DNA from: a virus
Virus record (IMG/VR): IMGVR_UViG_3300023179_000012
Length of the DNA: 64,000 nt
Strand: one strand, 5' to 3'
Shown: positions 11,585 through 29,515 of the stretch, in pieces
Numbering within the stretch: the stretch's first letter is position 1
Layout of the letters: the number at the start of each line of letters is the position of its first letter
Notes under the pieces: model-generated
Told to the model about the DNA's origin: nothing
The model's input: only the letters and a program-made list of their open reading frames with translations
The model's database searches: none
Translations under genes and position numbers: made by a program

Positions 11585-12411
11585 ATTAAAATTCCTTATT
11601 GGGTGGAAAATCTTTTACCGAATACAATTCCACAGTCTCATTATAATCAAGACCCAAATATTGACTTAATTCAGTATCCACAAGAGAGTCCCAATATTCT
11701 TTAGGATCAGTACCATGTTCACTATTATAAGTAATCTTAAGTGTCACATAGGATGTTTTTAGCATTATTCAAACTCCTTGATTGATAGAATGTTTTCAGA
11801 ACCAAAGTCACCGAAGAATTCAGGATCAGTATATAGTTTATCATTTAAATATTCTGGAATATGACTATCCTTAATATCATCATCAATAACCAATTCCATA
11901 TTAATAGTAATAACCTTCATTCTTCTCCCCTTTGAATTCTATCAAGATAAATATTTGCCGTTCTAATATAAGCCTTAAGACTCTCAAGATACTGCTGATT
12001 ATTAGTATCCTGATAGAATCTCACTTGATCACCAATCTTATTGGCCACATAAAGAAGAGCCTCACTATTATTCATAGAATTTTTCCTTTCTGCAAAATCA
12101 CAAAGACCTTGGTTTTTCGCTGACTATCACTAAGACCGCCAAATCCGCAGGATTGAGTAAGACTTATATTAGATTTGAAAAATAGAAATACAGATTATAA
12201 TCCTATTATTCTATTATTATTCCTAAGTCCTTTAGCATCAACCACTTACGTTTCATTGTATCGTCTACTAGGTCGCTTGTCCATCACCATTTTTAAGAAT
12301 CTTCGACAAAGTTTCGTAACCCATTGTGGATATTGGACTTACGACAAAATTTCGCCGCCGGGTTTGTCATAAGTCCTTGTCTGACAAGCACTTACAACAA
12401 ATGGCGTGAGG

Positions 12412-12458
12412 GTGGAAACCGCCGTAGGTTATTCCCTCTTTCCCTACGGCGGCTCCAC
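12412..12458. terminator. GC-rich hairpin after the DUF932 gene (terminator or processing site)
   Basis: CCGCCGTAGG/CCTACGGCGG 10-bp stem; no clear U-tract. Confidence 0.45.
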
Positions 12459-12476
12459 TATCTCCACGAAAGAGCA

Positions 12477-13421
12477 TCAGATTGCGTTGGCAAACTCTAG
12501 AGCAGATTCCAACGCCTTATTATTATCATTGGCATTTTGACCGAACCACAAACTATCAAGGCGATTATCAGTGGTGCGACCCTTACCATAGTTCAGATAT
12601 TCATTGAACCCGTTATAGGCGGCCCACCAAGTACCGCGAACATTAGCCGCAGTCTGTTTCGGGCCTTCGATACGAGCCAGAATATCATCCATAATATTAC
12701 GGGTACGAGTCTTAATATCCTCGTCAGCACCCTTAATATTCAGGACAACCTTAACATACTTCTCAATATCCTTCTGGTTGAAACTCTTGCTAGCAAGGAA
12801 CCGATACTGTTCCGCAGTAGCCTCAAAACCAGCGTTAATATTATCCATAATATCGCGGACTTGTTCCAGATTCTTCTGGCTGGAGCGAGTGTGGCGAATA
12901 CGGATCAGTTTGCTATCATTATGCTTGTGAGCATACGACAGCGTGTTCACGCAGACCACGCGAATCGGAGTGTATCCGACACGAATAGCCGTTGTACCGT
13001 CGTGACTATTACTCAGCAGGATAAACTTGCTAACCTCATCACCCGGAACAATCTCGCTATTATCTCGGTTGAGTTGAGCAAGCACCCAGACCTTTTGACC
13101 GAGATGCAGCGATCCGGCAGTATGGATCGAACACTCGTTAGCGTCGAGGAAAGGCTGGAACCAATCAAACGCATCCTTATTCTGGAGCGGAGTATAACGA
13201 GGGCCGACAACGCCAAGGATGCTGCCATCGCTCTTGCGATAGGTCGCACGATGGTTCACAGGCGTACCGTCAACGGTCTGCAAATCCTTCAGACCTACTT
13301 CCCAATCCAGACCAGCAGCGACGATAGCATCATTCACATTGATACCCTCGTCAACGCTATTGCCAAGGCCATGCCAAGGCGTCTCACCAACAAACATCAT
13401 CTTTTCAACAGCAGCAGGCAT
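12477..13421 (-). CDS. DUF932/DUF945 family phage/plasmid-like protein (TIGR03299-like)
   Basis: MPAAVEKMMFVGETPWHGLG start; LLSNSHDGT; PIRVVCVNTL. Confidence 0.9.
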   Translation of the reverse strand: MPAAVEKMMFVGETPWHGLGNSVDEGINVNDAIVAAGLDWEVGLKDLQTVDGTPVNHRATYRKSDGSILGVVGPRYTPLQNKDAFDWFQPFLDANECSIHTAGSLHLGQKVWVLAQLNRDNSEIVPGDEVSKFILLSNSHDGTTAIRVGYTPIRVVCVNTLSYAHKHNDSKLIRIRHTRSSQKNLEQVRDIMDNINAGFEATAEQYRFLASKSFNQKDIEKYVKVVLNIKGADEDIKTRTRNIMDDILARIEGPKQTAANVRGTWWAAYNGFNEYLNYGKGRTTDNRLDSLWFGQNANDNNKALESALEFANAI

Positions 13422-13584
13422 AACTAACTCCTTCGTGTTTAACTTCTTCGTTCCGATGCACTGATTCTACCATCTAGTATCGTCTAGTCAAGCGGCAAAA
13501 CTTGTGAAAAAATTTTTTTGTTCTAAGTCATTGATTGGCAAGTACTTACGCTTCGGCCGCCGCCACCAACTGGACGTAAGTCCT

Positions 13585-14088
13585 TTAGTGATCTAGGTTT
13601 AGGAGCGGAACCCCGAGATCACGCTTGCAGAGTTTAGAACCATCCTCATCATTACGATAAGCACATTCGTTAGGCAGATAGCAATACACACCAACACAAT
13701 GAGAACACGAGTATTCATCCTTGATTACTTTTTTAATATGTTTTACGGTTCCACCAGAACAGATTAAATCGTCTAATATAATATATTGAAAAGGGGCCAC
13801 TCCCTCGGTACGAAACTCTGAATAGCATTGTTCCCCCTTTCTTACCACAACAATATTCTTGTTGAGTAACTCTGCGATTTGTGGAACCACCATCAATCCA
13901 CTTACACCGCAGCAGGCAATACTATCAAAGTCTTTGGCAATCTTTCGCAGATCACACACGGCCTTAATAATAATCTTATTTCTAGCCTTATGATTTAAAA
14001 CGTGACAGGTATGGCTAGCACCCTGAATATATTTTCCTTCTGTAGTTTTACGAACATCCTCAATCTGATTATTCAAAATATTGGTCAT
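13585..14088 (-). CDS. type I phosphoribosyltransferase
   Basis: PRPP-binding loop IILDDLICSGGT; upstream VVVRK. Confidence 0.85.
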   Translation of the reverse strand: MTNILNNQIEDVRKTTEGKYIQGASHTCHVLNHKARNKIIIKAVCDLRKIAKDFDSIACCGVSGLMVVPQIAELLNKNIVVVRKGEQCYSEFRTEGVAPFQYIILDDLICSGGTVKHIKKVIKDEYSCSHCVGVYCYLPNECAYRNDEDGSKLCKRDLGVPLLNLDH

Positions 14089-14093
14089 AAAAA

Positions 14094-14184
14094 CGATGGA
14101 CGGCCGGATTCGAACCGACTAAGAAAGGAAAGATAAAGCGATATGCTTATAATAGAATACTTGTCCCACCAAGTTGCATCCATC
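14094..14184 (-). ncRNA. tRNA-like RNA with 8-bp acceptor stem and canonical T arm but no anticodon arm
   Basis: GATGGATG/CGTCCATC, ACTTG/CAAGT D-like stem, GTCGG-TTCGAAT-CCGGC, G discriminator. Confidence 0.55.
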
Positions 14185-14197
14185 AGACGAGAAAGGG

Positions 14198-14365
14198 CTA
14201 TTCGTTATCTAGTTCATCCACTACATTATGATAATAGTGTTCGTACTCTTTTTCATCCTCAAAATCATCATAATCTGGTTCGTCAGAATAGTCAGCATAA
14301 TCATAGAGTTCTTCTGAATCTTCCACAATACGATCATAATCAAACTCATATTCATTTTCAAACAT
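14198..14365 (-). CDS. highly acidic small protein
   Basis: 25 of 55 residues D/E; start moved to MFENEY because the longer ORF overlaps tRNA-Lys. Confidence 0.6.
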   Translation of the reverse strand: MFENEYEFDYDRIVEDSEELYDYADYSDEPDYDDFEDEKEYEHYYHNVVDELDNE

Positions 14366-14416
14366 AGCCACTTTCTCCTTTTCCACTATCATACACCAAC
14401 GAACACGATTGTCAAG

Positions 14417-14487
14417 TAGGGGCCGAAGGTAACGCTCCTTCTTCAATAGATTAAAAGTCTATTGCATCACTTTAATGCTTGACCCCC
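14417..14487 (-). tRNA. tRNA-Lys(UUU), atypical T loop
   Basis: Cloverleaf; anticodon loop CTTTTAA; T loop AGCGTTA. Confidence 0.8.
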
Positions 14488-14591
14488 GCGAGGAAATCCA
14501 TTATACCAAGTATTATCGGTTTGTCAAGACCAAAAACTTGAATCTTTCGCTGACTATCGCCAAGACTGCAAATCCGAAGGATAGGGTAAAA

Positions 14592-14662
14592 CAAAGGCGG
14601 AGGGAATCGAACCCTCATCTACGGTTTTGGAGACCGTCATTCTACCGTTGAACTACGCCAAT
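14592..14662 (-). tRNA. tRNA-Trp(CCA), two acceptor-stem mismatches
   Basis: Loop CTCCAAA; T arm GAGGG-TTCGATT-CCCTC; acceptor ATTGGCG/CGCCTTT. Confidence 0.8.
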
Positions 14663-14813
14663 GTTCGTAACTCAGACCGTCAGCCTCCGGTTTGCTATCA
14701 TACTCTATTATCGACAAGAAGCAAGTGAATTCTTTAGTTTTTCTAAGTCTAATCGTACCAAGCACTTATAACTATATCGCGCCGCCATATTTTACCTAAG
14801 TCCTTTATCTATA

Positions 14814-14884
14814 AGCGGATAGAGAGAATCGAACTCTCGTCAACTGATTGGAAATCAGTGGCTCTACCATTGAGCTACATCCGC
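14814..14884 (-). tRNA. tRNA-Gly(UCC)
   Basis: Canonical cloverleaf; loop TTTCCAA. Confidence 0.95.
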
Positions 14885-14887
14885 AAA

Positions 14888-14974
14888 CGGAATCTGAGGG
14901 ATTCGAACCCCCGGAGGATTTTAACCCTCGGCGGTTTAGTAAACCGCTGCCTTAAACCACTCGGCCAAGATTCC
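14888..14974 (-). tRNA. tRNA-Ser(ACU)
   Basis: Long variable arm, GGA acceptor start, G73; loop TTACTAA. Confidence 0.9.
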
Positions 14975-14977
14975 AAA

Positions 14978-15049
14978 CTGGCTCGGTAGGACTCGAACCT
15001 ACAACCGGGCGGTTAACAGCCGCCAGCTCGACCATTGAGCTACGAGCCA
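14978..15049 (-). tRNA. tRNA-Asn(GUU)
   Basis: Canonical cloverleaf; loop CTGTTAA. Confidence 0.95.
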
Positions 15050-15052
15050 ATA

Positions 15053-15123
15053 TTCCGGGACTACGATTTGAACGTAGAATAAAGGATCCAAAGTCCTCTG
15101 TGATACCGTTTCACCATCCCGGA
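15053..15123 (-). tRNA. tRNA-Gln(UUG)
   Basis: Cloverleaf; loop CTTTGGA; T loop TTCAAAT. Confidence 0.9.
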
Positions 15124-15124
15124 G

Positions 15125-15196
15125 AGCCGACAGAGGGAATCGAACCCCCGACAGGTTGTTTACAAAACAACTACTCTACCACTGAGTTACGTCGGC
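15125..15196 (-). tRNA. tRNA-Thr(UGU)
   Basis: Canonical cloverleaf; loop TTTGTAA. Confidence 0.95.
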
Positions 15197-15198
15197 AA

Positions 15199-15399
15199 TC
15201 ATTCATTCATCCCTTTAAGGATTCCAACAATAACAGCCACTCCAAATAAAATACCCAAACCACCAGCACTAAAACACGCTGATACAATCATAAATCCAAG
15301 AACTATCATTACTAAAGTGCCACAACCATTATTATCTGATGGTGGTAATCGTCTGGCATCTCTACCAGCGTCTCGCCAAAGTCCATACGGGAAATACAT
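15199..15399 (-). CDS. small membrane protein
   Basis: Two hydrophobic segments. Confidence 0.55.
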   Translation of the reverse strand: MYFPYGLWRDAGRDARRLPPSDNNGCGTLVMIVLGFMIVSACFSAGGLGILFGVAVIVGILKGMNE

Positions 15400-15406
15400 A
15401 TTTCAC

Positions 15407-15595
15407 CTAAATATCATACTCGTTACGCCATAGTTTGTCAATAGCGTTTCGTGTACGGAGCCGCTTGGGCCTGTTGTCCATAGTTGTATCTCGGTATTCC
15501 TTGTGTCCCGTAGGCACTTCCCACGGTTTCTTGACCTTGATTTTGATAACTTTGCGGCGTCGTGGAATATCGTCGTTGTTCTGGAGCGTAATCAT
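15407..15595 (-). CDS. basic small protein, DNRPKRLRTR family copy 1
   Basis: WEx..GH and DNRPKRLRTR shared with 24177-24347. Confidence 0.7.
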   Translation of the reverse strand: MITLQNNDDIPRRRKVIKIKVKKPWEVPTGHKEYRDTTMDNRPKRLRTRNAIDKLWRNEYDI

Positions 15596-15794
15596 GCCAT
15601 TGTCCGTTTTCGTGAAGATAAAATACTTTGTCTACATTAGGATCGTAAGCCATTAAACAATATTGTATAGGATGCTTTACTGGCGTCAAATGCTTTTGTA
15701 TTATGGGTATTTTGATATCACCCTTTTGATAATCCTTTAATCCAGTATACGCTAGCCCTAAGACAGCAACCACTACGCCAATCCATTGTATCAT
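15438..15794 (-). CDS. membrane-anchored hypothetical protein
   Basis: N-terminal TM helix; its tail overlaps 15407-15595 in another frame. Confidence 0.5.
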   Translation of the reverse strand: MIQWIGVVVAVLGLAYTGLKDYQKGDIKIPIIQKHLTPVKHPIQYCLMAYDPNVDKVFYLHENGQWHDYAPEQRRYSTTPQSYQNQGQETVGSAYGTQGIPRYNYGQQAQAAPYTKRY

Positions 15795-15948
15795 ACCATT
15801 TCCTTTTGTCAATCGTCGCTTCATAGATAGTTTATCGACCACGACGAGAAAAAACTTTAATCGTTCCTAAGTCATTGATTTGCAAGTACTTAGGATTAGA
15901 TGGCCGGGCCGCCCTTGTCCTAAGTCGTTTAGGATCAAGGGGTTACGA

Positions 15949-16191
15949 TTATTCATTATCGTCGCGGCTTAGTTCCCATCCTGCGGCTCTCACAATACTT
16001 TTTGTAGAGATTACATTAGTTTTAGAATCAGCACTAATATAGTCTCTATATCCACGTTCATCAGCATAAAAATATTCATCAATAATATCAAACTTATTAG
16101 TCATTAGCAGTCCCGTGATACTAGCCTCAAGAGCATCCTTACGACTAATAACAACTTCAAGAGTATTACTCTTTACATAAAACTTAGGCAT
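15949..16191 (-). CDS. hypothetical protein
   Basis: Stop 2 nt from the 80-bp repeat. Confidence 0.6.
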   Translation of the reverse strand: MPKFYVKSNTLEVVISRKDALEASITGLLMTNKFDIIDEYFYADERGYRDYISADSKTNVISTKSIVRAAGWELSRDDNE

Positions 16192-16357
16192 GGTTCATCT
16201 CCGTTCCCAAATACTTCATATCCTCATCACAATCCGCACAAACCGGCGTACCAGTATCTTGATACCACCACGGCGTTACATTGATTTCATCCTCACAAGA
16301 AACACAACGCCAAACGTGACGGATTTTAGTATCATCAATAACTTGCCAGATTTCCAT
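16184..16357 (-). CDS. zinc-ribbon small protein (not in ORF track, 57 aa)
   Basis: Hand translation MEIWQVID..CVSC..CADC..; fills the gap in the operon. Confidence 0.65.
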   Translation of the reverse strand: MEIWQVIDDTKIRHVWRCVSCEDEINVTPWWYQDTGTPVCADCDEDMKYLGTEMNHA

Positions 16358-16365
16358 GATAACTC

Positions 16366-17070
16366 CTAGTGGGCAGGAAAGAGAACATTAGCCAGACCGC
16401 GAACACACAAGTCACACGATATACTATCCTTCGTGCCAGTGCAAGTAATAACAGACCGACCACGACGAATCTCGGGACAAGTTACAAACTTTGTGCCGTT
16501 CAGCACAACCAGTTTCGGCAAAGATTTACGCCAAGCCTCGGCCTTGATTTTGCTCTTGGGTCGCTTGGGTGCAATCTTCATATCGCTATCACACCATGCA
16601 AACTTTTTGAAACCTTGTGCAAGAGCCTCACCCATATCATTATCATCATGCACACTAGCATATACATTCATATACTTTTCCAGACTAACAAGCCGGGAAT
16701 CGTAGATATGAGTATAAAACCACATATCGGGCAGCGTGTCACCATCGGCAAGAATACTCTCACACGCCCACGTTACATTAGCAACATAGTCTAGGTCAAG
16801 TTCGCCATTGAGAAACCAGTCGCCACGCTCATGCCAGCGAATAGACTTTTTACGCTTTTTGGCGTCCAGAATCATAGCACGGATTTTGTTTTTCTCCGTG
16901 ACTACGTTAGCAAAACCAGCAACGCGAGCATTTTTATACTGATTCTCGGTAGCCTCGGCATAGCATCCATTATTGAGATAGTCACAGTCTGGAGGGCAAG
17001 TATCGCCAACCGGACGCGAAACCACAATGCAACCCTTACCCAACTTATCGTTACCGTCTGCTGTTTTCAT
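16366..17070 (-). CDS. GP88-like Cys-rich (radical-SAM-like Fe-S) protein
   Basis: TCPPDCDYLNNGCYA, IRWHERGDW, WFYTH, C-terminal CP..C..C..C. Confidence 0.6.
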   Translation of the reverse strand: MKTADGNDKLGKGCIVVSRPVGDTCPPDCDYLNNGCYAEATENQYKNARVAGFANVVTEKNKIRAMILDAKKRKKSIRWHERGDWFLNGELDLDYVANVTWACESILADGDTLPDMWFYTHIYDSRLVSLEKYMNVYASVHDDNDMGEALAQGFKKFAWCDSDMKIAPKRPKSKIKAEAWRKSLPKLVVLNGTKFVTCPEIRRGRSVITCTGTKDSISCDLCVRGLANVLFPAH

Positions 17071-17231
17071 GGCTTTCTCCCTTGGTCTACCGATTCTACA
17101 TTATAGTATCGGCACGGTCAAGCGAAAAACTGTGATAAAAATATTTTTGTTGTAAATCCTTGTGGCATCAGCACTTAGAGCAAAACCGGCCCTCCGAATT
17201 CGTCATAAGTCCTTATGCTTCAATAACTTAG

Positions 17232-17305
17232 CGAGAGCGACGGGACTCGAACCCGCAACCTCTAGCGTGACAGGCTAGCGATCTAACCGATTGATCTACG
17301 CTCCC
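17232..17305 (-). tRNA. tRNA-Asp(GUC)
   Basis: Canonical cloverleaf; loop CTGTCAC. Confidence 0.95.
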
Positions 17306-17676
17306 GAATTATAAATTATGATACCAGCATGTATTTCACTATGACAATTTTTACATACTAATATACATTTATCTAATTCTTTTTTTATTTTAGTTTCATT
17401 TTTAGAGAATGACGTATTCTTTATCTTACTTATATTAAAATCTTTTTTAGATGGATGAATATGATGAAAATCTAAAGATCCAATATATTTATTATATCCA
17501 CATATAATACAAGAACTACCCTTATATTCAACACATTTTGCCTTAAAGGCTCTCTGTCGATCTAGAGTATTCTGATGATTACACTTCCTACAATAACTTT
17601 GTATTTTCCCCTTACGATTACCAGATTTTACCTTATATGGTTTCTTTTCTATTTGACCACATTTTACGCATTTCAT
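17296..17676 (-). CDS. HNH endonuclease (putative homing endonuclease in tRNA cluster)
   Basis: CIICGY..LDFHHIHP..KCILVCKNCHSEIH; N-terminal CxxC..CxxC. Confidence 0.85.
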   Translation of the reverse strand: MKCVKCGQIEKKPYKVKSGNRKGKIQSYCRKCNHQNTLDRQRAFKAKCVEYKGSSCIICGYNKYIGSLDFHHIHPSKKDFNISKIKNTSFSKNETKIKKELDKCILVCKNCHSEIHAGIIIYNSGA

Positions 17677-17729
17677 ATTTTACCTCATGGATAGAATCTA
17701 AATATCTATCCATATTATACACCAATAAA

Positions 17730-17802
17730 TACTGCCGGAAGGATTTGCACCCTCGTGAGTCAACTTAGAAGGTTGATGCCTAATCTACTCGGCCACGGCA
17801 GC
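17730..17802 (-). tRNA. tRNA-Arg(UCU), atypical T loop
   Basis: Loop CTTCTAA; T loop TGCAAAT. Confidence 0.85.
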
Positions 17803-17866
17803 ATAAAACCGATAGCCGCCAGTTATTCACCAGCGGTCTATCGGATATTATAACATTATATTATGC

Positions 17867-18121
17867 TCAGGCAACAGCCTCGGCTTCCGATTCAACCTTG
17901 CCATTATGAGCATCCCCAGCCTGCTTCGCAGTCACACCAGTGACCCTAGCACGCCATACCTTATAACCCTGCTCGCTAAAAGCCTTGACTTCTCCAGCCT
18001 TGACGTTAGCATGAACGTCGCTGGGCAGAGCATCGGTCAGACAGGTGGAGATCGAATCCACCACAACCTCACGGTCAAGATCATCGGCAACAATATCAAC
18101 AACAAAAGAAAACTTCTTCAT
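17867..18121 (-). CDS. hypothetical protein
   Basis: Start set at MKKFSF, downstream of promoter 18254-18281. Confidence 0.6.
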   Translation of the reverse strand: MKKFSFVVDIVADDLDREVVVDSISTCLTDALPSDVHANVKAGEVKAFSEQGYKVWRARVTGVTAKQAGDAHNGKVESEAEAVA

Positions 18122-18394
18122 GGTAAAACCTTTCCAAGTAATAGTAGTAAACCCAACAAACACATTATACAAGAACCACAATCGCTTGTCAAGTTGCCAA
18201 TCCGAACTTTCTTAGTGTTGGGATCGGTTGGTCGCTTGTCTTGCGATGCTATCAGTATACCATTGTTATCGTCATTGTCAACAGCGGCTCGTGAATGTTT
18301 TTTTGCTTTTTTCCTAAATCATTGAACCATAAGCACTTACGTCAAAATCCCGCCGCCGTCCTTGCTCTAAGTCCTTTAGTAGCAAGGCTTTAAG

Positions 18395-18769
18395 TCAAGA
18401 GAGATAACCCTCACAACCCAAAGAGGTCAGATCACGCAGCAACCCTTCAGCCGCGTCGGGAGTCTTAGCGGTGAGAGTGATGGGATTACCACCACCAATC
18501 AAGAAGCCGCCAGCGTCCCACCGACCCACCATACCATCGGTCCAATCCTTCGATTCCTTGAGTCCCCAGCCGGTGTGCTGTCGAACAGCCTTGATGCAAG
18601 AGATACGGTTGTCCAAATCCATACCCTTGGTGATCGTAACCATTCGACGCTGGTTCACACCCAAGACCATCTCAAAAGCCTGCGTGATACGCTCTCTAAT
18701 ATCCTCCCTAGCATAGAAAGAAAGTTCCATAGCCTCACGAACACTCAGTTGCAGATTGATCATATTCAA
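18395..18769 (-). CDS. ribosomal protein bL12 (L7/L12) C-terminal domain-containing protein
   Basis: RISCIKAVRQHTGWGLKESKDWTD matches KIxVIKxVRxxTGLGLKEAKDLVE; PITL..AEGLLRDLTSLG follows. Confidence 0.8.
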   Translation of the reverse strand: MNMINLQLSVREAMELSFYAREDIRERITQAFEMVLGVNQRRMVTITKGMDLDNRISCIKAVRQHTGWGLKESKDWTDGMVGRWDAGGFLIGGGNPITLTAKTPDAAEGLLRDLTSLGCEGYLS

Positions 18770-19191
18770 ACCCTTTCTTCCAAAATGTAAACTTGTTTGC
18801 CGTTAGTTAATAGAGTAGCATACTCGCTACCGTCCCAAATGAATTCGTTATTGTCGCTTTCTCGTCGCCAGTGCGGATCACGAAGTGGATTATAAAACAA
18901 CTTCTCAAGATTGTCAACAGGCAGAGCGGGATAAAAATCCTTCCTCAACATAACTTCTTCACATCTTACCCACCCACTAACATCATGCACACCAGCCTCA
19001 AACACCTGTTTAGCCTTATTCGGCCTATTCCACAACTTACAACCCCGCATCTCTAACTGATATTTTTTGGGGTCAACGTAGTATACATCAACTGTTTCCC
19101 CACCCTGCTTAACCTTTATTTGCCAGTGCATATAATGCTGGCCATTACTCAGGTGAAATCGAACTTCGCCATGTAGTTTGTTCTGTTTCAT
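18766..19191 (-). CDS. conserved phage hypothetical protein
   Basis: VRFHL..YMHWQIK..DP..YQLEM..C.L.N pattern. Confidence 0.6.
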   Translation of the reverse strand: MKQNKLHGEVRFHLSNGQHYMHWQIKVKQGGETVDVYYVDPKKYQLEMRGCKLWNRPNKAKQVFEAGVHDVSGWVRCEEVMLRKDFYPALPVDNLEKLFYNPLRDPHWRRESDNNEFIWDGSEYATLLTNGKQVYILEERV

Positions 19192-19605
19192 GCTTATACT
19201 ATACCTTATCGACCAATCGTTGTCAAGACCTTTAAACTTTCGCTGACTACAGCCACTCTAGCCAAATCCGAAGGATTAGGAGAAACAAGGCTGGCTTCCG
19301 CCATACTCGACCAGCATTTCAGATAGCCTCTTTTGATATCATTGTGGCTATCCCCAAGCCTTGCTCCCTAAGTCTACCAGTATTATCGGCGTTTGTCAAA
19401 TGGATTCTTTAAAAAATCCTAAGTCGTTACTGGATAAGCACTTAGATCAAATTCGCGGCCGCGGCCTCGTCGTAAGTCCTTTAATACCAATCACTTAGGT
19501 GCCACCAACCACAAGTACCACACCAGTACCACCACACACCATACTTATCTAGCCTATATGCCATATCATTGTTTTCACCACACACACAAATATCACTAAG
19601 AGTTT

Positions 19606-19860: not shown

Positions 19861-19863
19861 TAT

Positions 19864-21232: not shown

Positions 21233-21238
21233 ATATTT

Positions 21239-21364: not shown

Positions 21365-21544
21365 TTGTATTGTCAATGATCGGCTGAACTCTTGTATTCT
21401 ACAGTCTATTATCGACCTGTCAATAGGGTTTTCTTGAAAAAATATTTTTTAACGTAAGATATTGAGAAGCAAGCACTTACGACGATCCCGGCCCGGCGAG
21501 TTTGCCCTAAGTCCTCTTGTGCTAAGAACTTAGAGCGAACCCTT

Positions 21545-21727
21545 TTAGTAGTCGGCCTCAATAGGCTCATCACACCTATAGTTAGAATCTATCAAAACTT
21601 CTGGACGAAACTTGCTCAGTTTCTCGTCTCTGCAATCCACACAAACCCGTGCCAGCGGAATACCCCTAGCATCGCTCTCCCACCAACTATTCTTTTGAGA
21701 TCCACACGGACAATACTTTGTTATCAT
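21545..21727 (-). CDS. small zinc-binding hypothetical protein
   Basis: CPC...CVDC. Confidence 0.6.
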   Translation of the reverse strand: MITKYCPCGSQKNSWWESDARGIPLARVCVDCRDEKLSKFRPEVLIDSNYRCDEPIEADY

Positions 21728-22206
21728 GCTTGTACCTCGTCATCAGAAAAAAAGTTTTCCATGTCGAACTCATTCCATAAAGCAACAGGAATCATATCCT
21801 TACTCTTATACTCAATATAGTTGTCAACTCCATTATCATAGAGTCCACAAAAAGACATACCCGGCTCGAAATAGGATGCTTTTACATTGTATCCCAAATC
21901 TACCAGTTCGTTATACAGTCCAATAGGAGGACTCCAAGCAGAGTCAAAAGAACAACTAGCCTGATTACCAACAACAGTAGCCTTCAAGCCGTGCCATTCT
22001 TCTCGTTCCGTACCCTCGTCAGCCCCAATATCCCACTTTACTCCCCAGTTATTCACACAAAAATCCCACCAACCATCGCCAATATCTGCGGGCATAGGAA
22101 TAAACTCGTTACACACAGTTCCCTTGTTGTATGTTTTCACAAATCGGTCGAGCATAGAGGGATCGGAGTGTTCAACGGTCAACTTGTTCAAGCACCAGTT
22201 AGGCAT
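21724..22206 (-). CDS. DUF1281/YubB (Api92-like) ferredoxin-fold protein
   Basis: MPNWC.N; NWGVKWD; FDSAWSPP; YFEPGMSFCG. Confidence 0.75.
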   Translation of the reverse strand: MPNWCLNKLTVEHSDPSMLDRFVKTYNKGTVCNEFIPMPADIGDGWWDFCVNNWGVKWDIGADEGTEREEWHGLKATVVGNQASCSFDSAWSPPIGLYNELVDLGYNVKASYFEPGMSFCGLYDNGVDNYIEYKSKDMIPVALWNEFDMENFFSDDEVQA

Positions 22207-22213
22207 ATTATCC

Positions 22214-22447
22214 TCAGTTAGTAGTAGTGGTCAAAGCAGAATACTTACCATCACGCCTAGCAGCCTCAAGAGCATCACAGAAAAAATCACTAAAATCTTC
22301 CATAACGCTCAAAGCATCTTCTCTAGTACCATCCAGAATAGCATCAGTAAATACTATCACAAAATCAGCAACCCGCTCACGAACCATCACAATCTCTTTT
22401 TTGCTCAACATCTCTCTCCCCTTTTCAATCTTTATACCAAAACCCAA
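22214..22447 (-). CDS. hypothetical protein
   Basis: Minus-strand ORF after tRNA-Glu. Confidence 0.45.
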   Translation of the reverse strand: MGFGIKIEKGREMLSKKEIVMVRERVADFVIVFTDAILDGTREDALSVMEDFSDFFCDALEAARRDGKYSALTTTTN

Positions 22448-22458
22448 TCCGTTGTCAA

Positions 22459-22531
22459 TAGCCCCACGGAGGATCGAACTCCGATCTCCGGGATGAAAGC
22501 CCGGTATACTAAACCATTATACTATGGGGCC
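22459..22531 (-). tRNA. tRNA-Glu(UUC)
   Basis: Cloverleaf; loop CTTTCAT. Confidence 0.9.
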
Positions 22532-22828
22532 GAGACTCGCTCAATCCAAATATAGTCACCATATTTAGCCTGTGCTTTTTTCATAGCATCAAACTCGCTC
22601 AAAGCGACAATGTAGCCAGCAAACTTATTGTTTGCAAATACACGCCAAGTATAACCAGCATAGCAGTTAGCAGTAGTCATAGCGTTATTCTAATCTATTA
22701 TCGGCACTTGTCAAGAGAAGTCTTTAGTTTTTCTAAGTTGTTGCAGTATAAGGACTTACAACAAATCCGGCCCCGCAGCCATGCCCTAAGTCCTTGTTTA
22801 ACAAAGACTTAGAGCAACTGGCCGAGAA

Positions 22829-23239
22829 TCAGAACAGAAGACTAGCAAGGCCGGTTTTGAACGCGACCCCACCAAGGAGGGGACGACGCACATTGCGTGT
22901 ACGCTCCGCGTAGAAGTTGCGAATCTTACCGTCCGGAGTTTGAGCAGTCACAAGATGACGGCTACGCTCAAAGTTCGGATCATTTCTACGATACCTACTT
23001 TTACTATTCAGTCGAGCAAGATAATCGTCAGAAAATCGGTGAACACCAATAACCCTAGCCATAAAACGTTCAGGATCACCAGTAACAGGCTGCACATATT
23101 CAAAGTTATAAACACCACCAACCCTAGCATTTGTCAGACTATCACGAAGACCACTATACAGATGGAAAACGCTAAAAGCCACAATGCCAGAAACCGCACC
23201 AACAACCGCACACAAACCAATCAGAACTTCGTTAGTCAT
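22829..23239 (-). CDS. membrane-anchored protein, possible WYL-like domain
   Basis: N-terminal TM; YNFEY...DGKIRNFYAERTRNV resembles the WYL RxFxxDRI end. Confidence 0.45.
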   Translation of the reverse strand: MTNEVLIGLCAVVGAVSGIVAFSVFHLYSGLRDSLTNARVGGVYNFEYVQPVTGDPERFMARVIGVHRFSDDYLARLNSKSRYRRNDPNFERSRHLVTAQTPDGKIRNFYAERTRNVRRPLLGGVAFKTGLASLLF

Positions 23240-23331
23240 CAGACACCCTTTCGTTGTGAAAATCAAACACCTAGTACGCACATTCTACAGTATTATCGTC
23301 GTGTGTCAAGCCCAAACTTTAGAGATTTTGG

Positions 23332-23637
23332 TCACTCGCCATCATCATAATAGCCGTAACCATCATCACTATGAAAATCCTCACAACAGTCTACATCTTC
23401 GCCAAAATAACCGTAATCCTCATCGGTTCCCCATCCAGCGGAAGACAATGCACTCTCAGTATCGCCATCCATACTATCATCATACGAATCATCCCAACTG
23501 TTCTCCAACTCCTCGCCATCAATCTCGCCGTAAAAATCATTGTAATCGTCATAGTTCGACGCATCAACATCATCAGCGTAGTTCATATCATCCTCATAAG
23601 AGTTATCGGGATCGAACAGGGGGTCAGGATGGCTCAT
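23332..23637 (-). CDS. extremely acidic protein (PDPL family copy 1)
   Basis: 37 of 101 residues D/E, no K or R; start set below promoter 23664. Confidence 0.7.
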   Translation of the reverse strand: MSHPDPLFDPDNSYEDDMNYADDVDASNYDDYNDFYGEIDGEELENSWDDSYDDSMDGDTESALSSAGWGTDEDYGYFGEDVDCCEDFHSDDGYGYYDDGE

Positions 23638-23802
23638 CTTAGGTTTCTCCGTTGTGTGATCCGATTCTATATCTATTATCGACGTTGTCAAGTGTAGAAC
23701 TTTAAAAATATCTTTTTTGTTCTAAATCCTTATATAGCAAGTACTTACGATTCGCCCGGCGGCGCCACTCTAACGTAAGTCCTTATTTTCCAAAGAGTTA
23801 GA

Positions 23803-24093
23803 TTATTTGAGAATATATTCTATTTCTTGTCCATTCGCAATCATAGCAGCATATATCTCAATACGCTTATCTTTCTCCCGTTTCTCAATCTGATGGTCGG
23901 TTTCTGTTACATCACGAGAATCGCACTTTCGCTCAAGATCAGCCAGGGTAACACCATCGGTACGATGGTCACGAAAATCCTCCGGCAACCACGAGTTAGG
24001 CACCACCACAATATCCCGCACAACTCGCTCAAACTCAGCAATCAGTTCATAACCGTTCATTTTCTTCTCCTTGGTTGTGAGGCAGTCTATCAA
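23803..24093 (-). CDS. hypothetical protein
   Basis: Stop 1 nt from repeat; true start is probably MNGYEL. Confidence 0.6.
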   Translation of the reverse strand: MIDCLTTKEKKMNGYELIAEFERVVRDIVVVPNSWLPEDFRDHRTDGVTLADLERKCDSRDVTETDHQIEKREKDKRIEIYAAMIANGQEIEYILK

Positions 24094-24176
24094 AATCTTT
24101 TTGGCTTGTCAACAGCAAAATCCCACTTTTTCGCTGACTACAGCCACACTGACCAAATCCGTAGGATTGGCTGAGA

Positions 24177-24347
24177 CTAATCGAAATCTCTCATAGCCTG
24201 TCGCTTCTGGTCACTGCGAGTGCGAAGTCGCTTGGGTCGGTTGTCGTGCTGACCAGATCCAGACATATGGCTAGAATGACCCTTACCCATCTCCCACACT
24301 GGACGAATGTTCAGCCGAATCGCGTCGTATTTCTTTCGCTTGCTCAT
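24177..24347 (-). CDS. basic small protein, DNRPKRLRTR family copy 2 (not in ORF track, 56 aa)
   Basis: Hand translation MSKRKKYD..WEMGKGH..DNRPKRLRTR.. Confidence 0.7.
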   Translation of the reverse strand: MSKRKKYDAIRLNIRPVWEMGKGHSSHMSGSGQHDNRPKRLRTRSDQKRQAMRDFD

Positions 24348-24751
24348 ACTCGTATCCTACCATATATTATCGGCTAGTCAATAGAGAATCTTTATTTTTC
24401 TAAGTCTTTGATACACAAGTACTTACGAAAAAATCGCCGCGCCCGGCTCGACGTAAGTCCTTGCCGGGGTTAGAGTTACGAGTTAACCACCCATGCGGCA
24501 GCACACCCAACAACAAAACTTATTACAAATACGCAAATATCCAAAACTTTCATTCTTTTCCCCTTATAGGATAAACCAAATCACGAACACTATAACTAGC
24601 AAACACACCGATAATAAATCCCACACCGATTTGTACCCAGTTAATATCGGCCATCCCTAGCCCCTTTCTTAAATGTTTTTCCCGTACTCAATAATAGCAC
24701 ACATTACTCCTGCAAAAATAATCAGGAATAGCATACTAATAAAATAACCCA

Positions 24752-25060
24752 TCACGATACCACCATCCCATCAATAAAAGGGTATTCCTTACCATTAATC
24801 TTAACATACCAAGTAAAATCCCTCTGGTAAACCCGTACCGGGCTATACTGGTTAATCCTATCCTTAGTGGTAACAGTTTGCCAACCCCCACTATTAAGGG
24901 TATAGGTGCCATCATCCCGAATCTTTACAACGTATGTACTGTGCAACTTAATAGCCACAGTATTATCGCTCAGGATTTCCGCATAGGTATTATTACCAAT
25001 CTTTCGGCTATCCTTATTCCGCTTGCCACGAACCATCTTAATCGCTTCGGCGTGTGTCAT
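24752..25060 (-). CDS. conserved phage hypothetical protein
   Basis: KIGNNT...LH.T.V...TLNSGGWQTVTTKDRINQY pattern. Confidence 0.7.
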   Translation of the reverse strand: MTHAEAIKMVRGKRNKDSRKIGNNTYAEILSDNTVAIKLHSTYVVKIRDDGTYTLNSGGWQTVTTKDRINQYSPVRVYQRDFTWYVKINGKEYPFIDGMVVS

Positions 25061-25241
25061 TTTCTTTTCTCCTTACTTCTATTATCGGTATTTTACAGGC
25101 TAAACTTGAGAAAGTCAAGAAAATAATCCTGTGCCAAATGCGAATATTTTTTAGAATGTCCTAAGTCCTTATGGGGCAAGTACTTACGCAAAAATCGCCA
25201 CGGCCCCCGCGTCATAAGTCTTTACGCGGAAAGGCTTTATG

Positions 25242-25523
25242 TCAACTGTTCAACTGTTCAGCCATAACTTTACCCGGCTTGAATCGCACCACACGCCGCT
25301 GTCCGATCATCACGGCTTCGCCCGTGCGAGGATTGCGGGCCTTGCGAGGTGCGGTCACCTTTACGGTGAACACCCCGAAGTTTCGCAGTTCGATGCGTCC
25401 AGTTTCGACCAGCGTTGCTATCATATTGTCCAGAGTAGCCTGCACGATCTCGCGTGCCTGCTGACCCGTAACGCCAACCCGCTCCGCAACCTGTTCGACC
25501 ATACCACGCTTCGTTCCGATCAT
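25242..25523 (-). CDS. HU/IHF-family DNA-binding protein
   Basis: GRIELRNFGVF..K..APRKARNPRTGE..FKPGK. Confidence 0.92.
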   Translation of the reverse strand: MIGTKRGMVEQVAERVGVTGQQAREIVQATLDNMIATLVETGRIELRNFGVFTVKVTAPRKARNPRTGEAVMIGQRRVVRFKPGKVMAEQLNS

Positions 25524-25573
25524 TTCACTTTCTCCGTTGTGATGTTTCTATTCTACAGCCACTATTCTAAAAA

Positions 25574-25750
25574 TCAAGAGCAAAAATCTGCTGGCTCGGG
25601 ATACATTTCTTCCCACAACCCAGTCACTTCGGCATAATCAAACGGGTCGCAATCAACCTCGTCGATAGGTTCGACCATAGGCTCGATCATACCATCGTCA
25701 GCGAGTTGAGAGAGGATAGCGTTGATGGTATCGGTGTCATCGAGGATCAT
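25574..25750 (-). CDS. acidic small protein (not in ORF track, 58 aa)
   Basis: Hand translation MILDDTDT..; 17 D/E, no K or R; below promoter 25779. Confidence 0.65.
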   Translation of the reverse strand: MILDDTDTINAILSQLADDGMIEPMVEPIDEVDCDPFDYAEVTGLWEEMYPEPADFCS

Positions 25751-26042
25751 ATCGTTTCTCCGTTGGGGTGATGCGATGATTCTACAGTTATTATCGACAA
25801 ATGCAAGCCCACACCTTGAGAATAATCCTATGCCAAACTAAAAATATTTTCTGACACGGTATTTTCTTGGATCATTTTCTCTAAGTGCTTGTGCAGAAAG
25901 GACTTAGGAAAAATCCGGCCCGGCGTCCTCGCCGTAAGTCTTTACGGATCAAGGACTTGCGTCATTATTTAGATAACACGCAATAACATAGGCCAACATA
26001 ACTAATAATAAATGTAAGTGCAGCAAGCATTATAATATTCCT

Positions 26043-26231
26043 TTATTTGGCGTGAATAAATACGTTTTTACTAGCGGTCTGATTTGTTACAGTCACAATC
26101 CAGTTTTTTCCGCTACCATCTTCCCGAAGAATACCGTTGATGATACCAACGTGTACATTACCCTTGGGATCAGTAACAGTGCCATACTTTCCAGACCGCA
26201 TAGCACTCATAATCTTATCAAGACTATTCAT
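26043..26231 (-). CDS. hypothetical protein
   Basis: Minus-strand ORF in unit. Confidence 0.55.
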   Translation of the reverse strand: MNSLDKIMSAMRSGKYGTVTDPKGNVHVGIINGILREDGSGKNWIVTVTNQTASKNVFIHAK

Positions 26232-26245
26232 TATACTATAACCTT

Positions 26246-26446
26246 TCAGTTAGCGTTAGCAGGCTCAAAAATATCCAGAACATTACACTTGTCAACATAG
26301 ATTGAACGATATCCATGCTCACACTTGACGGTGAGAAGAATACGCTCTCCAAACTGACGCACCCTAGTCACAACGCCGTCAACAACCTCTCCGTTGTTAT
26401 ACTCGGCATGAACAGCATAACCAGCCATGGGAACCTTACTCGTCAT
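26246..26446 (-). CDS. hypothetical protein
   Basis: First ORF below promoter-like region 26470. Confidence 0.55.
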   Translation of the reverse strand: MTSKVPMAGYAVHAEYNNGEVVDGVVTRVRQFGERILLTVKCEHGYRSIYVDKCNVLDIFEPANAN

Positions 26447-26680
26447 TCTACCCTTTCTTTCTCTCTTCTATTATCGACATTATACAGGCGATTCTTTAGG
26501 TTGCAAGCAAAATCTTTGGATTTTTGTGTCAAGATTTTTTGACAAAACTTTTCTGTTTTTCGGTATGGTTTGGCATACCGTTTGCTGATGCGATTTTCCC
26601 TAAGTCGTTACGCTGTAAGTACTTACGTCAAATTCGCTGCGCCCATATCGTCGTAAGTCCTTACGCCGTATGGGTTTGCG

Positions 26681-26866
26681 TCAACTCTGTCCCGGATAGA
26701 TTCTTCCGCTCTTGAGTCGCTGTACAAGCGTATCGTAATCGTCAGTCGTGAACAGCGTATAATAAGCATCCCGCTCCTGCACGATCCACTTGCGAGTGTA
26801 TCCGTTCCACACACTAGCCACGACCACACCGAGAGAGTTAGCCAGAGATACGATTTCAGCATTCAT
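26681..26866 (-). CDS. hypothetical protein
   Basis: Stop 1 nt from repeat; start MNAEIV. Confidence 0.55.
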   Translation of the reverse strand: MNAEIVSLANSLGVVVASVWNGYTRKWIVQERDAYYTLFTTDDYDTLVQRLKSGRIYPGQS

Positions 26867-26868
26867 TT

Positions 26869-27084
26869 TCAAGATACTCCCATCCAAGATGCTTTTTCCA
26901 CACAGTAATCATAGAATATATCGTTCAAAACTTCAAGATGGTTTTTTTCGGTCAAACGACGACGAGCAAGGATAGCATCGCACTCTGCGAAAAACTTACC
27001 CGTGGACACTTCATATACAATCGTACACGCATACGATTCGCTTCCCCAAATCCTAGCCTTAACATCAACGAACTTCTTCAACAT
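26869..27084 (-). CDS. hypothetical protein
   Basis: Minus-strand ORF in unit. Confidence 0.55.
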   Translation of the reverse strand: MLKKFVDVKARIWGSESYACTIVYEVSTGKFFAECDAILARRRLTEKNHLEVLNDIFYDYCVEKASWMGVS

Positions 27085-27323
27085 CTGTTTTCTCCTCTTC
27101 TCTCTTCTATTATCGACATTCTATCAGACTTTCTTCAACATTTCAAGAGGGCAAAAAAGATTTTTGTAGCAGCAAATATCGTGCCAATCATAAGTCGTTG
27201 TCTGATAAGCACTTAGGCACAAGTCGTGCCGCCGAGTTCGACGCAAGTCCTTACGCCACAAGGATTTACGTCGAATTGTTGTACAGTAGTGTACAGGCTT
27301 ATATCCCCATAATAGGGGGCTTA

Positions 27324-27647
27324 TTACCCCTCCCACCCAAAGGGGGATACTTCCTCACCGCAAGCCTGAATAGCGGCATACTGTTCGATTAGAGCCTCTA
27401 CACGTTCACGCGATCCAGGTTTGCCAACCTTCACGATCATGGTATCCTCACCACCAACCATGCGAGAATCTACCTTCTCGCTCTTGCTCTTGCCGATATT
27501 CTTCAATGCGGTGCGATTGAACTTCAGCACCTTTTCGCTGCGAATCGTTCCACCATCTGCGTTAGTTTTGTCGCAAGGGATAGCGATACCAACGAAGCAC
27601 ATACGGGCAACTCGCTCAGCATCACGAACAATCTTAGGCTTTTTCAT
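27324..27647 (-). CDS. hypothetical protein
   Basis: Purine-rich leader, plausible composition. Confidence 0.6.
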   Translation of the reverse strand: MKKPKIVRDAERVARMCFVGIAIPCDKTNADGGTIRSEKVLKFNRTALKNIGKSKSEKVDSRMVGGEDTMIVKVGKPGSRERVEALIEQYAAIQACGEEVSPFGWEG

Positions 27648-27707
27648 TTTCTTTCTTTCTCCTTTGGATGATGGATCGTACTAAACTTTTCCCTGTGACG
27701 CAACCCC

Positions 27708-27956
27708 TCAAATGAGGGACGCTTCGCGCTCCTTGCGAAACTTGATGGCGTACAGTTCGTCCACAACAACGCGAACCACGGTATCCATGCTGACACTCTT
27801 GTGGGTATAGTATCCACAATGGATAGCGAACAGGCTATACGTACCGGGAACACCGGATGGTATCGACCCCACACTGTGGGGGTGAAGGGTAAAACCCGCA
27901 TTGTAAGCGTAACGGCGAATACTCTTGCGAATCGTTTCAATTTTTGGGATTCTCAT
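27708..27956 (-). CDS. hypothetical protein
   Basis: Start MRIPKI after a GA-rich leader. Confidence 0.5.
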   Translation of the reverse strand: MRIPKIETIRKSIRRYAYNAGFTLHPHSVGSIPSGVPGTYSLFAIHCGYYTHKSVSMDTVVRVVVDELYAIKFRKEREASLI

Positions 27957-28024
27957 CTCTATCTCTCTTTCTCTTTCCAGTATTATACCAAACTTTTTCG
28001 ACAGCACAACCCCCACAACGGGGG

Positions 28025-28201
28025 TCACCATCCGTTTCTCCGACACTCATCGGCCCAATCCCGATCCTCTTGACGGGTACGATCATTATACCCGTATCCA
28101 CCATAGGTAAGGTAGTTATCCTTCATGGCATCGTATCCATCATCCGAATCGTGAACATCGTCAAAATCTTCGTAATCGTACAGGGGGTCAGGGCAACTCA
28201 T
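28025..28201 (-). CDS. acidic small protein (PDPL family copy 2; not in ORF track, 58 aa)
   Basis: Hand translation MSCPDPLYDYEDFDD..; N-terminus resembles MSHPDPLFD of 23332-23637. Confidence 0.65.
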   Translation of the reverse strand: MSCPDPLYDYEDFDDVHDSDDGYDAMKDNYLTYGGYGYNDRTRQEDRDWADECRRNGW

Positions 28202-28652
28202 TTTTCACTCTCTCTTTCTTACCTCTATATAGTGCATGTTCTGTGCCAAAAGTCGAAAAATATTTTTGTGCGACTTTCTCGACGATTTCCGCAGGCTGTC
28301 ACCTTGGCACTATGTCATATTGGCAAAGTCTGCCATTTTTGGCTGCCGTATTGTTTGGCACGATATCTGCTGTGGTCATTTGATCTAAGTCGTTATGCCA
28401 CAAGTACTTACGTCGAATCCGCGGCCGCGAATTTTTCGTAAGTCCTTACGCCGTAAGGGTTTGCATCAAGTCGTTGTACAGTAGTGTACAGGCGTACACC
28501 CCACTACAGTGGGGATGCACAAGCGTACACTGAGCCGAATGGTACGTTATGCTGATTAGCATATACTGAACGAGCATCCGCCCAATCCTTAGCAAGTACC
28601 ATGCCAAGGTAGAAATCATTTTCCGAATTGTAGATATAGTAGGTTTTCATGA

Positions 28653-28802
28653 TTAGGAGATCAGTTCCATATCCTCATTGTAGCACTCGTACTCATCTCC
28701 GTCAATCTCTACGTGCCACACATCACCCTCATCGAAATGCCAGCGAATGATTCGACCAATCTTTCCGTCAACCTTCACCTTATCACCAAGAGCAAACTGC
28801 AT
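28653..28802 (-). CDS. small SH3-like protein (not in ORF track, 49 aa)
   Basis: Hand translation MQFALGDKVKVDGKIGRI..W.VE.. Confidence 0.6.
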   Translation of the reverse strand: MQFALGDKVKVDGKIGRIIRWHFDEGDVWHVEIDGDEYECYNEDMELIS

Positions 28803-28864
28803 TTTCTTTCTCCTTACTTCTTATATCGGTATTCTATCAAATATTTTTTAGATTATCTACCCCC

Positions 28865-29089
28865 TTATCGGGGGATCGTAATCAGATCACCAAAATGTGA
28901 GAACGTCAACTTGAGAACCCTATTCGGATATTTCTCATCGATATACTTCTGTGCAGTGCTTTTCCGATTATCGGTAGCACTCACACCCTGTACAACTGTA
29001 CCGTTCTCATCAATCACCTTCCAAACCTTCTTTTGAACGATACGCGGAAGGCTTTGGATGAAATCGTTGATATGAGTAACCTTTTCCAT
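28865..29089 (-). CDS. hypothetical protein
   Basis: Start MEKVTH below promoter TTGCAA-N16-TATAAT. Confidence 0.55.
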   Translation of the reverse strand: MEKVTHINDFIQSLPRIVQKKVWKVIDENGTVVQGVSATDNRKSTAQKYIDEKYPNRVLKLTFSHFGDLITIPR

Positions 29090-29452
29090 TTTTCTTTCTC
29101 TCTTTCTTTCTTCTCTTTTCTCTTGTGCTTTCATTATACAGTATATATCGGCCATTGCAAGCGAAATCTTTTGAAAAAATAAAAAATAATTCTGTGCCAA
29201 ATCAAAAAAACTTTTTGGTATACCGTTTGCTCTCTCGATTTCTTCTAAACCCTTATACCACAAGCACTTACACGCTCTTCGGCGTGACAAACAAGACGTA
29301 AGTCCTTATAATATCAGCACTTAGAGAGAGGGGGTTTTTCTGTTTCTTCTCCAGTCTCAAAACCTCTGACCCTAAACCCGCGGTGGTCCAAACATAGTAA
29401 GCAAACCATATATAATTGGCCAGTTTAATGACAAGTTTCCCCATTATTAAAT

Positions 29453-29489: not shown

Positions 29490-29515
29490 CTTTAGTATTC
29501 TACAGATTCTTTACT

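Follow-up and report, generated by a model that had tools for sequence, protein, structure and literature searches.

An array of 80-bp elements in the early region

The 64,000-nt stretch of IMG/VR virus record IMGVR_UViG_3300023179_000012 analysed here (the window) belongs to a phage: from ~30 kb onwards, its + strand encodes terminase, portal, major capsid and tape-measure proteins. The subject is a four-armed 80-bp element, located in a block of 18 kb that holds small genes of the minus strand and 9–11 tRNA genes. Repeat finding, grouping of the repeats into families and an iterated position weight matrix (PWM), scanned over the 64 kb, gave exactly 18 copies between 12316 and 29324 and none elsewhere. 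The copies score 50–93 bits, against −13.7 bits for the best hit in 20 shuffles. The element is thus real and more than chance, and the 18 fixed-geometry copies described by an earlier reading of the sequence alone (the sequence-only reading) were all recovered. The array (12000–30000) has a GC content of 0.41–0.45, compared with 0.31–0.34 on either side. The sense of the element and of the local genes is the minus strand, so that E18 comes first and E01 last:

29245–29324, − strand: E18, first of the array in the sense direction
28385–28464, − strand: E17, top score (93 bits), lacking a clear promoter in the 130 nt downstream
27190–27269, − strand: E16
26600–26679, − strand: E15
25881–25960, − strand: E14
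25161–25240, − strand: E13, starting 1 nt past the stop codon of an HU-family gene
24400–24479, − strand: E12
23722–23801, − strand: E11
22733–22812, − strand: E10, with the −35 box 18 nt away
21454–21533, − strand: E09
20621–20700, − strand: E08
19419–19498, − strand: E07, with the −35 box 19 nt away
18314–18393, − strand: E06
17152–17231, − strand: E05, abutting the 3′ end of tRNA-Asp (17231–17305)
15867–15946, − strand: E04
14743–14822, − strand: E03, weakest copy (50 bits), its outer arm overlapping the 3′ end of tRNA-Gly
13523–13602, − strand: E02, its first 18 nt overlapping the end of the ORF (open reading frame) at 13585–14088
12316–12395, − strand: E01, last of the array in the sense direction
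32 nt after E01, − strand: its downstream promoter, TGGACA-N17-TACAAT

Every element is laid out as arm10-N7-arm10-N26-arm10-N7-arm10 and is mirror-symmetric. On the minus strand the consensus reads S-TAA-R-T-CC-TT at positions 1–10, AAGGACTTACG at 18–28, CGTAAGT-N-CTT at 53–63 and AA-N-GACTTAG at 71–80. The element contains two 27-bp operator-like palindromes, 53 bp apart, with the consensus TAAGTCCTT-N7-AAGGACTTA. The inner arms hardly vary. G37 is invariant in the centre, which is rich in GC and has a palindromic consensus of its own, GGCCGGCC, placed on the dyad axis; conserved inner arms and a GC-rich core had both been noted before. Information at the N7 positions (11–17 and 64–70) is mostly below 0.5 bit and reaches 0.95 bit at most, compared with 1.3–2 bits in the arms.

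The geometry does not depend on the PWM. A regular-expression search that assumed no spacing was run over the window and ~2 Mb of related loci, with nine-base arm cores as patterns. The inner-to-inner gap was 28 nt in 454 of 464 cases, which corresponds to N26 plus one base on each side, and the arm-to-arm gap was 7 in all cases (404/404 and 407/407). Spacing is therefore rigid while the sequences of N7 and N26 vary freely. Copies oriented by their promoters share one polarity, as the sequence-only reading had stated: the distal inner arm reads ACTTAGG and the proximal one ACTTACG, and the centre is asymmetric. In an Rfam search no family matched the element at E ≤ 1; the matches obtained were tRNAs and a few sub-threshold other families, none of them on the element.

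Exchange of palindromes among relatives

No isolated phage shares the array region, and the best terminase match among isolates is ~25% identical. In IMG/VR, by comparison, the element recurs in hundreds of contigs from related phages, clustered in a single array of high GC in each genome; its inner-arm pattern matches more than 117 stretches and the terminase has hundreds of relatives at 74–92% identity. Four complete relatives of ~230 kb carry 14–25 copies each, all within one 18–20-kb region and none elsewhere. All fetched related loci together hold 622 copies, 519 of which are unique.

The closest relatives by terminase, L119 and its contig G005 (92% identical), lack the 80-bp element. Their single GC-rich array instead has 14 elements of another type (type B) at orthologous cassette boundaries, made of two 15-bp palindromes, CTGCCA-AAA-TGGCAG, 29 bp apart, with a similar GC core. 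Type C, found in other relatives, consists of C5-loop-G5 hairpins, and hybrid elements combine a B or C palindrome on the gene side with the palindrome of the window (type A) on the promoter side. The general plan is therefore a GC core between two palindromes, and the palindromes are exchangeable. An RNA-hairpin explanation stays alive, since types B and C make good hairpins.

The arrays of G001 and G005 are GC islands like that of the window. Two ORFs of the array, 12477–13421 and 16366–17070, have 95% amino-acid identity to G005, and several array genes are conserved beyond the terminase. A scan of reference genomes also returned element-bearing contigs in freshwater metagenome-assembled genomes (L237–L243), under inconsistent labels: Alphaproteobacteria (Lake Lanier), Methylococcaceae (Lake Mendota) and 'bacterium'. 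These are probably mis-binned phage contigs.

Elements are phased with strong promoters

In the sense direction, each element begins where the gene before it ends, at its stop codon or tRNA terminus, or within a few nt of that point; an A/T tract and a strong promoter come next. The promoter is typically TTGACA-N16/17-TAGAAT, and its spacer holds a conserved CGATAA motif. The array is thus ordered as end of the previous minus-strand cassette – element – A/T tract – sigma70-like promoter of the next cassette. Promoter-like sites are twofold enriched in the array (90 versus 43.9 ± 6.9 expected), with no such excess in the late region, and terminator-like sites occur at chance (13 versus 12.9).

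In 259 unique copies the promoter lies on exactly one side, never on both. The spacer between element and −35 box clusters at 18–20, 28–31, 39–42, ~52 and 63 nt, and lengths of 21–25 or 33–36 nt do not occur. Spacing is quantised at ~11 bp, and a strong periodicity of 10.5–12 bp persists after collapse to 102 spacer families (vector strength 0.64, compared with 0.32 for the 99.9% null). Among the window copies, 12 of 18 spacers fall at 18–19 or 29–32 nt.

Two single type-A palindromes lie just outside the array:

12222–12249, − strand: single type-A palindrome, starting 5 nt past the −10 box of the promoter at 12283–12255
10725–10752, − strand: single type-A palindrome, its right arm overlapping the −35 box of TTGCGT-N17-TACAAT

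The first of these covers the transcription start of the last array promoter. The position of both is kept in G001 (type A) and in G005 (type B), with N7 free. Judged from sequence, they occupy classical operator positions. Since the single type-A palindromes are retained in G005, whose array has the other palindrome, a protein that reads type A would be present family-wide. Promoter placement, ~11-bp phasing and the single palindromes over two promoters all fit a regulatory role, one of the two roles that the sequence-only reading had offered.

Several further motifs accompany the array promoters. Most of these promoters contain a second, interleaved motif, TAAAG or TCAAG, ~16 nt and GCCGATAA (13464–29160, − strand), which resembles promoters of the sigma28/FliA type and is stacked on the sigma70-like −35 and −10 boxes. 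In the relative G006, promoters of the same kind, TTGACA...GCCGATA, stand in low-GC parts with no element beside them. TGGCAC-N5-TTGC motifs, similar to the −24/−12 boxes of sigma54, adjoin six elements at 25850–29271, beside E13–E18, some of them as inverted pairs, and in relatives they also adjoin elements of types B and C. The relatives showed no clear enhancer-binding ATPase, only weak AAA-type matches in two genomes. Relatives with spacers of 44–45 nt have an extra palindrome, CCTTAC-N6-GTAAGG, between element and promoter (at 145.7 and 148.3 kb in G006); it uses the letters of the type-A half-site in the opposite order.

Constraint on sequence rather than on pairing

As RNA, the four arms could pair in two ways, 1:2 plus 3:4 or 2:3 plus 1:4. 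Across the 519 unique copies, none of the four helices pairs at its variable positions more often than the column frequencies, multiplied, predict, and the same holds for all 40 dyad-related column pairs; two inner-stem pairs, 21:60 and 27:54, are mismatched above chance. Combinations of the G·T type (290) and of the A·C type (251) are about equally frequent, with neither strand favoured. In the 18 window copies, paired cells amount to 73.3% (shuffled, 73.7%) for one fold and 76.7% (shuffled, 77.0%) for the other. With −2.5 to −4.5 kcal/mol, the 27-nt palindromes would make weak RNA hairpins; shuffled versions of the GC core fold as well as the core itself (difference −0.02 ± 0.12). The lack of covariation and the weak folding argue that the symmetry is a symmetry of the consensus, as expected for a symmetric protein complex on duplex DNA; the sequence-only reading, which had preferred sites on double-stranded DNA to RNA stems for want of covariation, is borne out in this respect.

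Two lines of reasoning were discarded. The GC core was rejected as a terminator hairpin, given that it folds no better than shuffles. An argument from wobble pairs for the functional strand failed: the outer-arm alternative TAAACC and its complement are mirror-symmetric in DNA. In type-B copies (n = 19), the wobble bias is only 11 to 3.

The best surviving alternative, which we nevertheless consider unlikely, is a signal at the RNA level. The element would be a stem-loop of the promoter-early stem-loop (PeSL) type that serves the sense transcript as terminator or attenuator, as 3′ stabiliser or as processing site, in analogy to the RNase III sites that lie between the early genes of T7. The start of the element at the upstream stop codon or tRNA 3′ end is compatible with such a role, as are the good hairpins of types B and C and their hybrids, minimum free energies of the 80-mer down to −31 kcal/mol, and the class of 18–20-nt spacers in which a U run starts 2 nt past arm 4. 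In T4-like phages, moreover, PeSL stem-loops at the same position are effective terminators (PMC2839356). These points are countered by the 519 copies without covariation or strand bias, by the weak folding of palindromes and core and by the mismatched inner-stem positions. In addition, loop lengths are invariant, most copies lack an adjacent U tract, and a palindrome over a −35 box has no rationale at the RNA level. The element does not have the GC-rich stem and directly following U tract of an intrinsic terminator. Termination at the elements looks unlikely: a canonical intrinsic terminator (39403–39434, + strand; 9-bp stem, 6 GC pairs, T7) directly follows the major capsid gene, whereas in the array terminator-like sites are at chance and promoters are enriched.

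Candidate binding proteins

Two array genes encode potential DNA-binding proteins:

29516–29776, − strand: small, helical helix-turn-helix (HTH)/AT-hook protein with the AT-hook KPRGRRP, first gene of the leftward block
25242–25523, − strand: gene of the HU/IHF family (PF00216, E = 6e-28) that makes up one of the array's cassettes and ends 1 nt before E13

The HTH protein had been proposed for binding assays in the sequence-only reading. Its basic helix, MVRRQRRKL, is unchanged in genomes of types A, B and C, and it was therefore rejected as the determinant of palindrome type. It remains a tentative candidate for binding the type-A palindrome, being as universal as the type-A single sites. Neither its sequence nor its profile matched any solved structure. 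HU-family homologues were found in only three related loci, each 8–9 nt from an element. The phage HU/IHF protein was rejected as an obligatory binder; absence of the gene from five complete relatives marks it as an accessory, dispensable cassette. Triangulation of window ORFs common to G001 and G002 but missing in G005 and G006 left nothing but small ORFs without annotation, 21545–21727 (Cys-rich), 24177–24347 (basic) and 17296–17676 (HNH-like), and no decisive type-A-specific factor.

The sites might instead belong to architectural or topological proteins of the host, of the IHF/HU type or gyrase, that insulate supercoiling between heavily transcribed cassettes. The models for this explanation, which strikes us as improbable, are the bacterial interspersed mosaic elements (BIMEs) and repetitive IHF-binding palindromes (RIPs) of Escherichia coli. 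BIMEs are bound by IHF or gyrase and have the same layout of palindrome, linker and palindrome; in BIMEs, RIPs and REPINs (doublets of repetitive extragenic palindromic, or REP, sequences) alike, two inverted imperfect palindromes flank a short linker at gene ends. Every arm of our element fits the IHF core (C/T)AA-N4-TTR, with a purine at position 79 in 258 of 259 copies; ~30 strong co-oriented promoters are packed into 18 kb; and the accessory HU-family gene of some relatives lies 8–9 nt from an element. On the other hand, the WAT part of the IHF consensus WATCAA-N4-TTR is not conserved, the invariant GGAC within the arms is foreign to any IHF site, and types B and C lack an IHF-like motif. 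The GC-rich centre is unlike IHF sites and unlike a BIME linker. BIMEs and REPINs are also scattered genome-wide, whereas the copies described here form one array, with no RAYT transposase.

Cassette order and recombination

Gene order in the window and in G001 is shuffled in the 20–29-kb half, nearest the HTH gene, and colinear in the 12–19-kb half. At orthologous cassettes the window has type A where L119 has type B, and homology blocks often start at the distal edge of the element. These differences in cassette order are most simply explained by homologous recombination.

The same observations, together with hybrids that join different palindrome types at the GC core, could be taken to mean that the elements are recombination linkers or selfish REP/REPIN-like repeats with no regulatory role of their own. 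We regard this as distinctly improbable. The Y1 transposase (PF01797), expected of REP/REPIN systems, is absent from five complete array-bearing relatives, and copies occur only within a single array, with one at each boundary, all pointing the same way and phased with promoters. Moreover, the arms are conserved between phages whose terminases share only 75% identity, with N7 and most of the centre left free, which argues for purifying selection on the arms and not for recent copying.

The sequence-only reading had also proposed tyrosine-recombinase crossover sites in a cassette-shuffling system. Inverted arms around a 6–8-bp spacer are indeed typical of loxP, dif and attC, the 10-7-10 layout is present in all copies, cassette order varies among relatives, and 8 of 26 HTH homologues show a faint, sub-threshold match to an integrase N-terminal SAM-like domain (best E = 0.001). 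Yet matches to Phage_integrase (PF00589) and Resolvase (PF00239) were lacking in the complete, array-bearing genomes G001–G005, with control genomes positive, and no recombinase was found among the scanned window ORFs. N7 carries essentially no information and no sequence conserved between copies, so that strand exchange would have to proceed without the spacer identity on which exchange of the Cre, Xer or Int type depends. The 10-bp arms and internally variable centre also differ from loxP, dif and attC; as to integrons, the arm consensus differs from the GTTRRRY core of attC, each cassette has its own promoter, unlike integron cassettes, and there is no integrase. A dedicated, integron-like crossover system is therefore very unlikely, and of the first interpretation we retain the double-stranded DNA sites, the regulatory fit and the differences in gene order but not the recombinase.

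A proposed double operator in a PeSL-like cassette

We favour, at chances that we judge about even, an explanation in which the element is a double operator on double-stranded DNA and forms the upstream part of a PeSL-like regulatory cassette. It starts from what is observed, namely the existence of the element, its geometry, placement, phasing and modularity and its constraint at the level of sequence rather than of pairing; from these we infer protein binding, a possible binder and the sign of regulation. The 80-bp element would be a composite protein-binding site in which two 27-bp operators flank the palindromic GC core; at a distance of 53 bp, the operators would face the same side of the helix. 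Cassettes would consist of the element, an A/T tract, a strong sigma70-like promoter and one or more small genes or a tRNA, reiterated 18 times in the GC-rich early array. A dimeric factor, encoded by phage or host, would occupy each palindrome and would modulate or insulate the array promoters from phased sites, with the proximal palindrome centred near −68, −78, −89 and further steps of this series. At the two further promoters the factor would sit over the −35 box or the transcription start and repress. The repeated cassettes could double as homology patches, allowing gain, loss and reordering by ordinary recombination.

Several observations weigh against the double operator. About half of the strong array promoters have no element. 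The phasing may come in part from ~11-nt A-tract modules and from shared ancestry of the spacers; phasing that derives from A-tracts is still a property of DNA and not of RNA. The full 80-mer can fold into a long irregular hairpin of −17 to −31 kcal/mol (−11.6 and −16.3 in two outliers); its mean z, ~−1.7, is modest. Relatives replace the distal palindrome or both by the good hairpins of types B and C, as would be expected if what the types have in common is that they form hairpins, in the manner of PeSL terminators. The distance between the palindromes varies with type (53, 29 and ~33 bp), so that no single looping geometry is kept. Finally, no binding protein was identified among the candidates examined: PF00216 is missing from the five complete relatives, and the HTH/AT-hook protein is conserved whatever the palindrome type.

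The closest known systems are the PeSL cassettes of T4-like phages (Arbiol et al., 2010, PMC2839356; Comeau et al., 2014, PMC4122927). Homologous exchange between PeSL units shuffles genes and produces mini-circles, and the authors speculated on a DNA-binding protein that targets the stem-loop (PMC2839356, PMC4122927). As in PeSLs, a palindrome, an A/T-rich tract and a sigma70 promoter close to consensus directly follow one another in this order, repeated between small early genes (PMC4122927). Both have a lineage-specific palindrome consensus (G_n-loop-C_n and others in PeSLs; types A, B and C here), and both are tied to insertion, deletion and reordering of cassettes, seen here between the window and G001. 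In contrast to the single stem-loop of PeSLs, the present element is a rigid 80-bp dyad of two 27-bp palindromes and a GC core, and its palindromes are weak hairpins without covariation. It also belongs to a different phage lineage, as shown by the terminase, and its array holds highly conserved genes and tRNAs besides ORFans.

Multi-copy operators offer a second comparison. The Streptomyces phage phiC31 uses conserved inverted repeats of 17 bp as multi-copy repressor sites, shorter than the double 27-bp palindrome with its GC core. The stoperators of cluster A mycobacteriophages are repressor sites (PMC9283540, PMC6550527) of 13–14 bp, asymmetric and bound by a monomer, unlike the element. 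With both systems the array shares a conserved site reiterated between genes of the early region, an orientation tied to transcription and some sites over promoters; 18 double sites are accompanied by single ones over a transcription start and a −35 box. Those systems occur in temperate phages with a known repressor, whereas neither a repressor nor a lysogeny module was found here. The layout is thus familiar. Three features have not been described elsewhere: a rigid dyad of four arms around a palindromic GC core, constraint at the level of sequence rather than of pairing, and modular replacement of the element among close relatives.

A bolder version of the double operator, which we put forward as speculation and think unlikely, is a 'mini-chromatin' in which one small phage protein, such as the HTH/AT-hook protein, binds ~38 phased operators (18 double sites plus the two promoter-overlapping single sites) and the 18-kb array is switched as a block. 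Control would come from loops or insulation that the protein imposes on all 18 kb of the early region; in relatives, other palindromes would have taken the place of each site's distal half. If this is true, the phage would have an insulator/operator system that is modular and evolvable, of a kind so far undescribed in phages.

If the elements are operators, an abundant family of uncultivated freshwater phages would control ~30 strong promoters through one reiterated rigid site, which would give a handle on early-gene timing in phages without a cultured representative. A natural experiment is provided by close relatives, in which orthologous boundaries between cassettes hold elements of type A, B or C or hybrids; comparison of the three types could settle, for the PeSLs of T4-type phages too, whether the palindrome acts as an RNA hairpin or as a protein target. 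Repeated cassettes would also account for the reshuffling of small accessory genes and tRNAs without a dedicated recombinase.

Other features of the window

An ORF of 216 aa (29946–30596, + strand) diverges from the HTH gene that heads the array and has a weak Sigma70_r2 match of 19 bits (26 bits in the G004 orthologue). It occupies the same place in 5 of 5 complete relatives, and its product may be a phage sigma factor. An ORF of 1385 aa (40403–44560, + strand) is highly repetitive between 40.7 and 42.9 kb and aligns to L119 in dozens of offset registers. The 850-aa protein encoded at 49961–52513 (+ strand) combines glycosyltransferase domains with a DNA-methyltransferase-like C-terminus. A leader-like motif recurs in minus-strand sense at 12101–12165, 14531–14594, 19238–19288 and 24129–24179, downstream of promoters or tRNAs. 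It consists of a small hairpin, AATCC-loop-GGATT, followed by the invariant TAGTCAGCGAAA; it has no Rfam match and is present in L119 as well.

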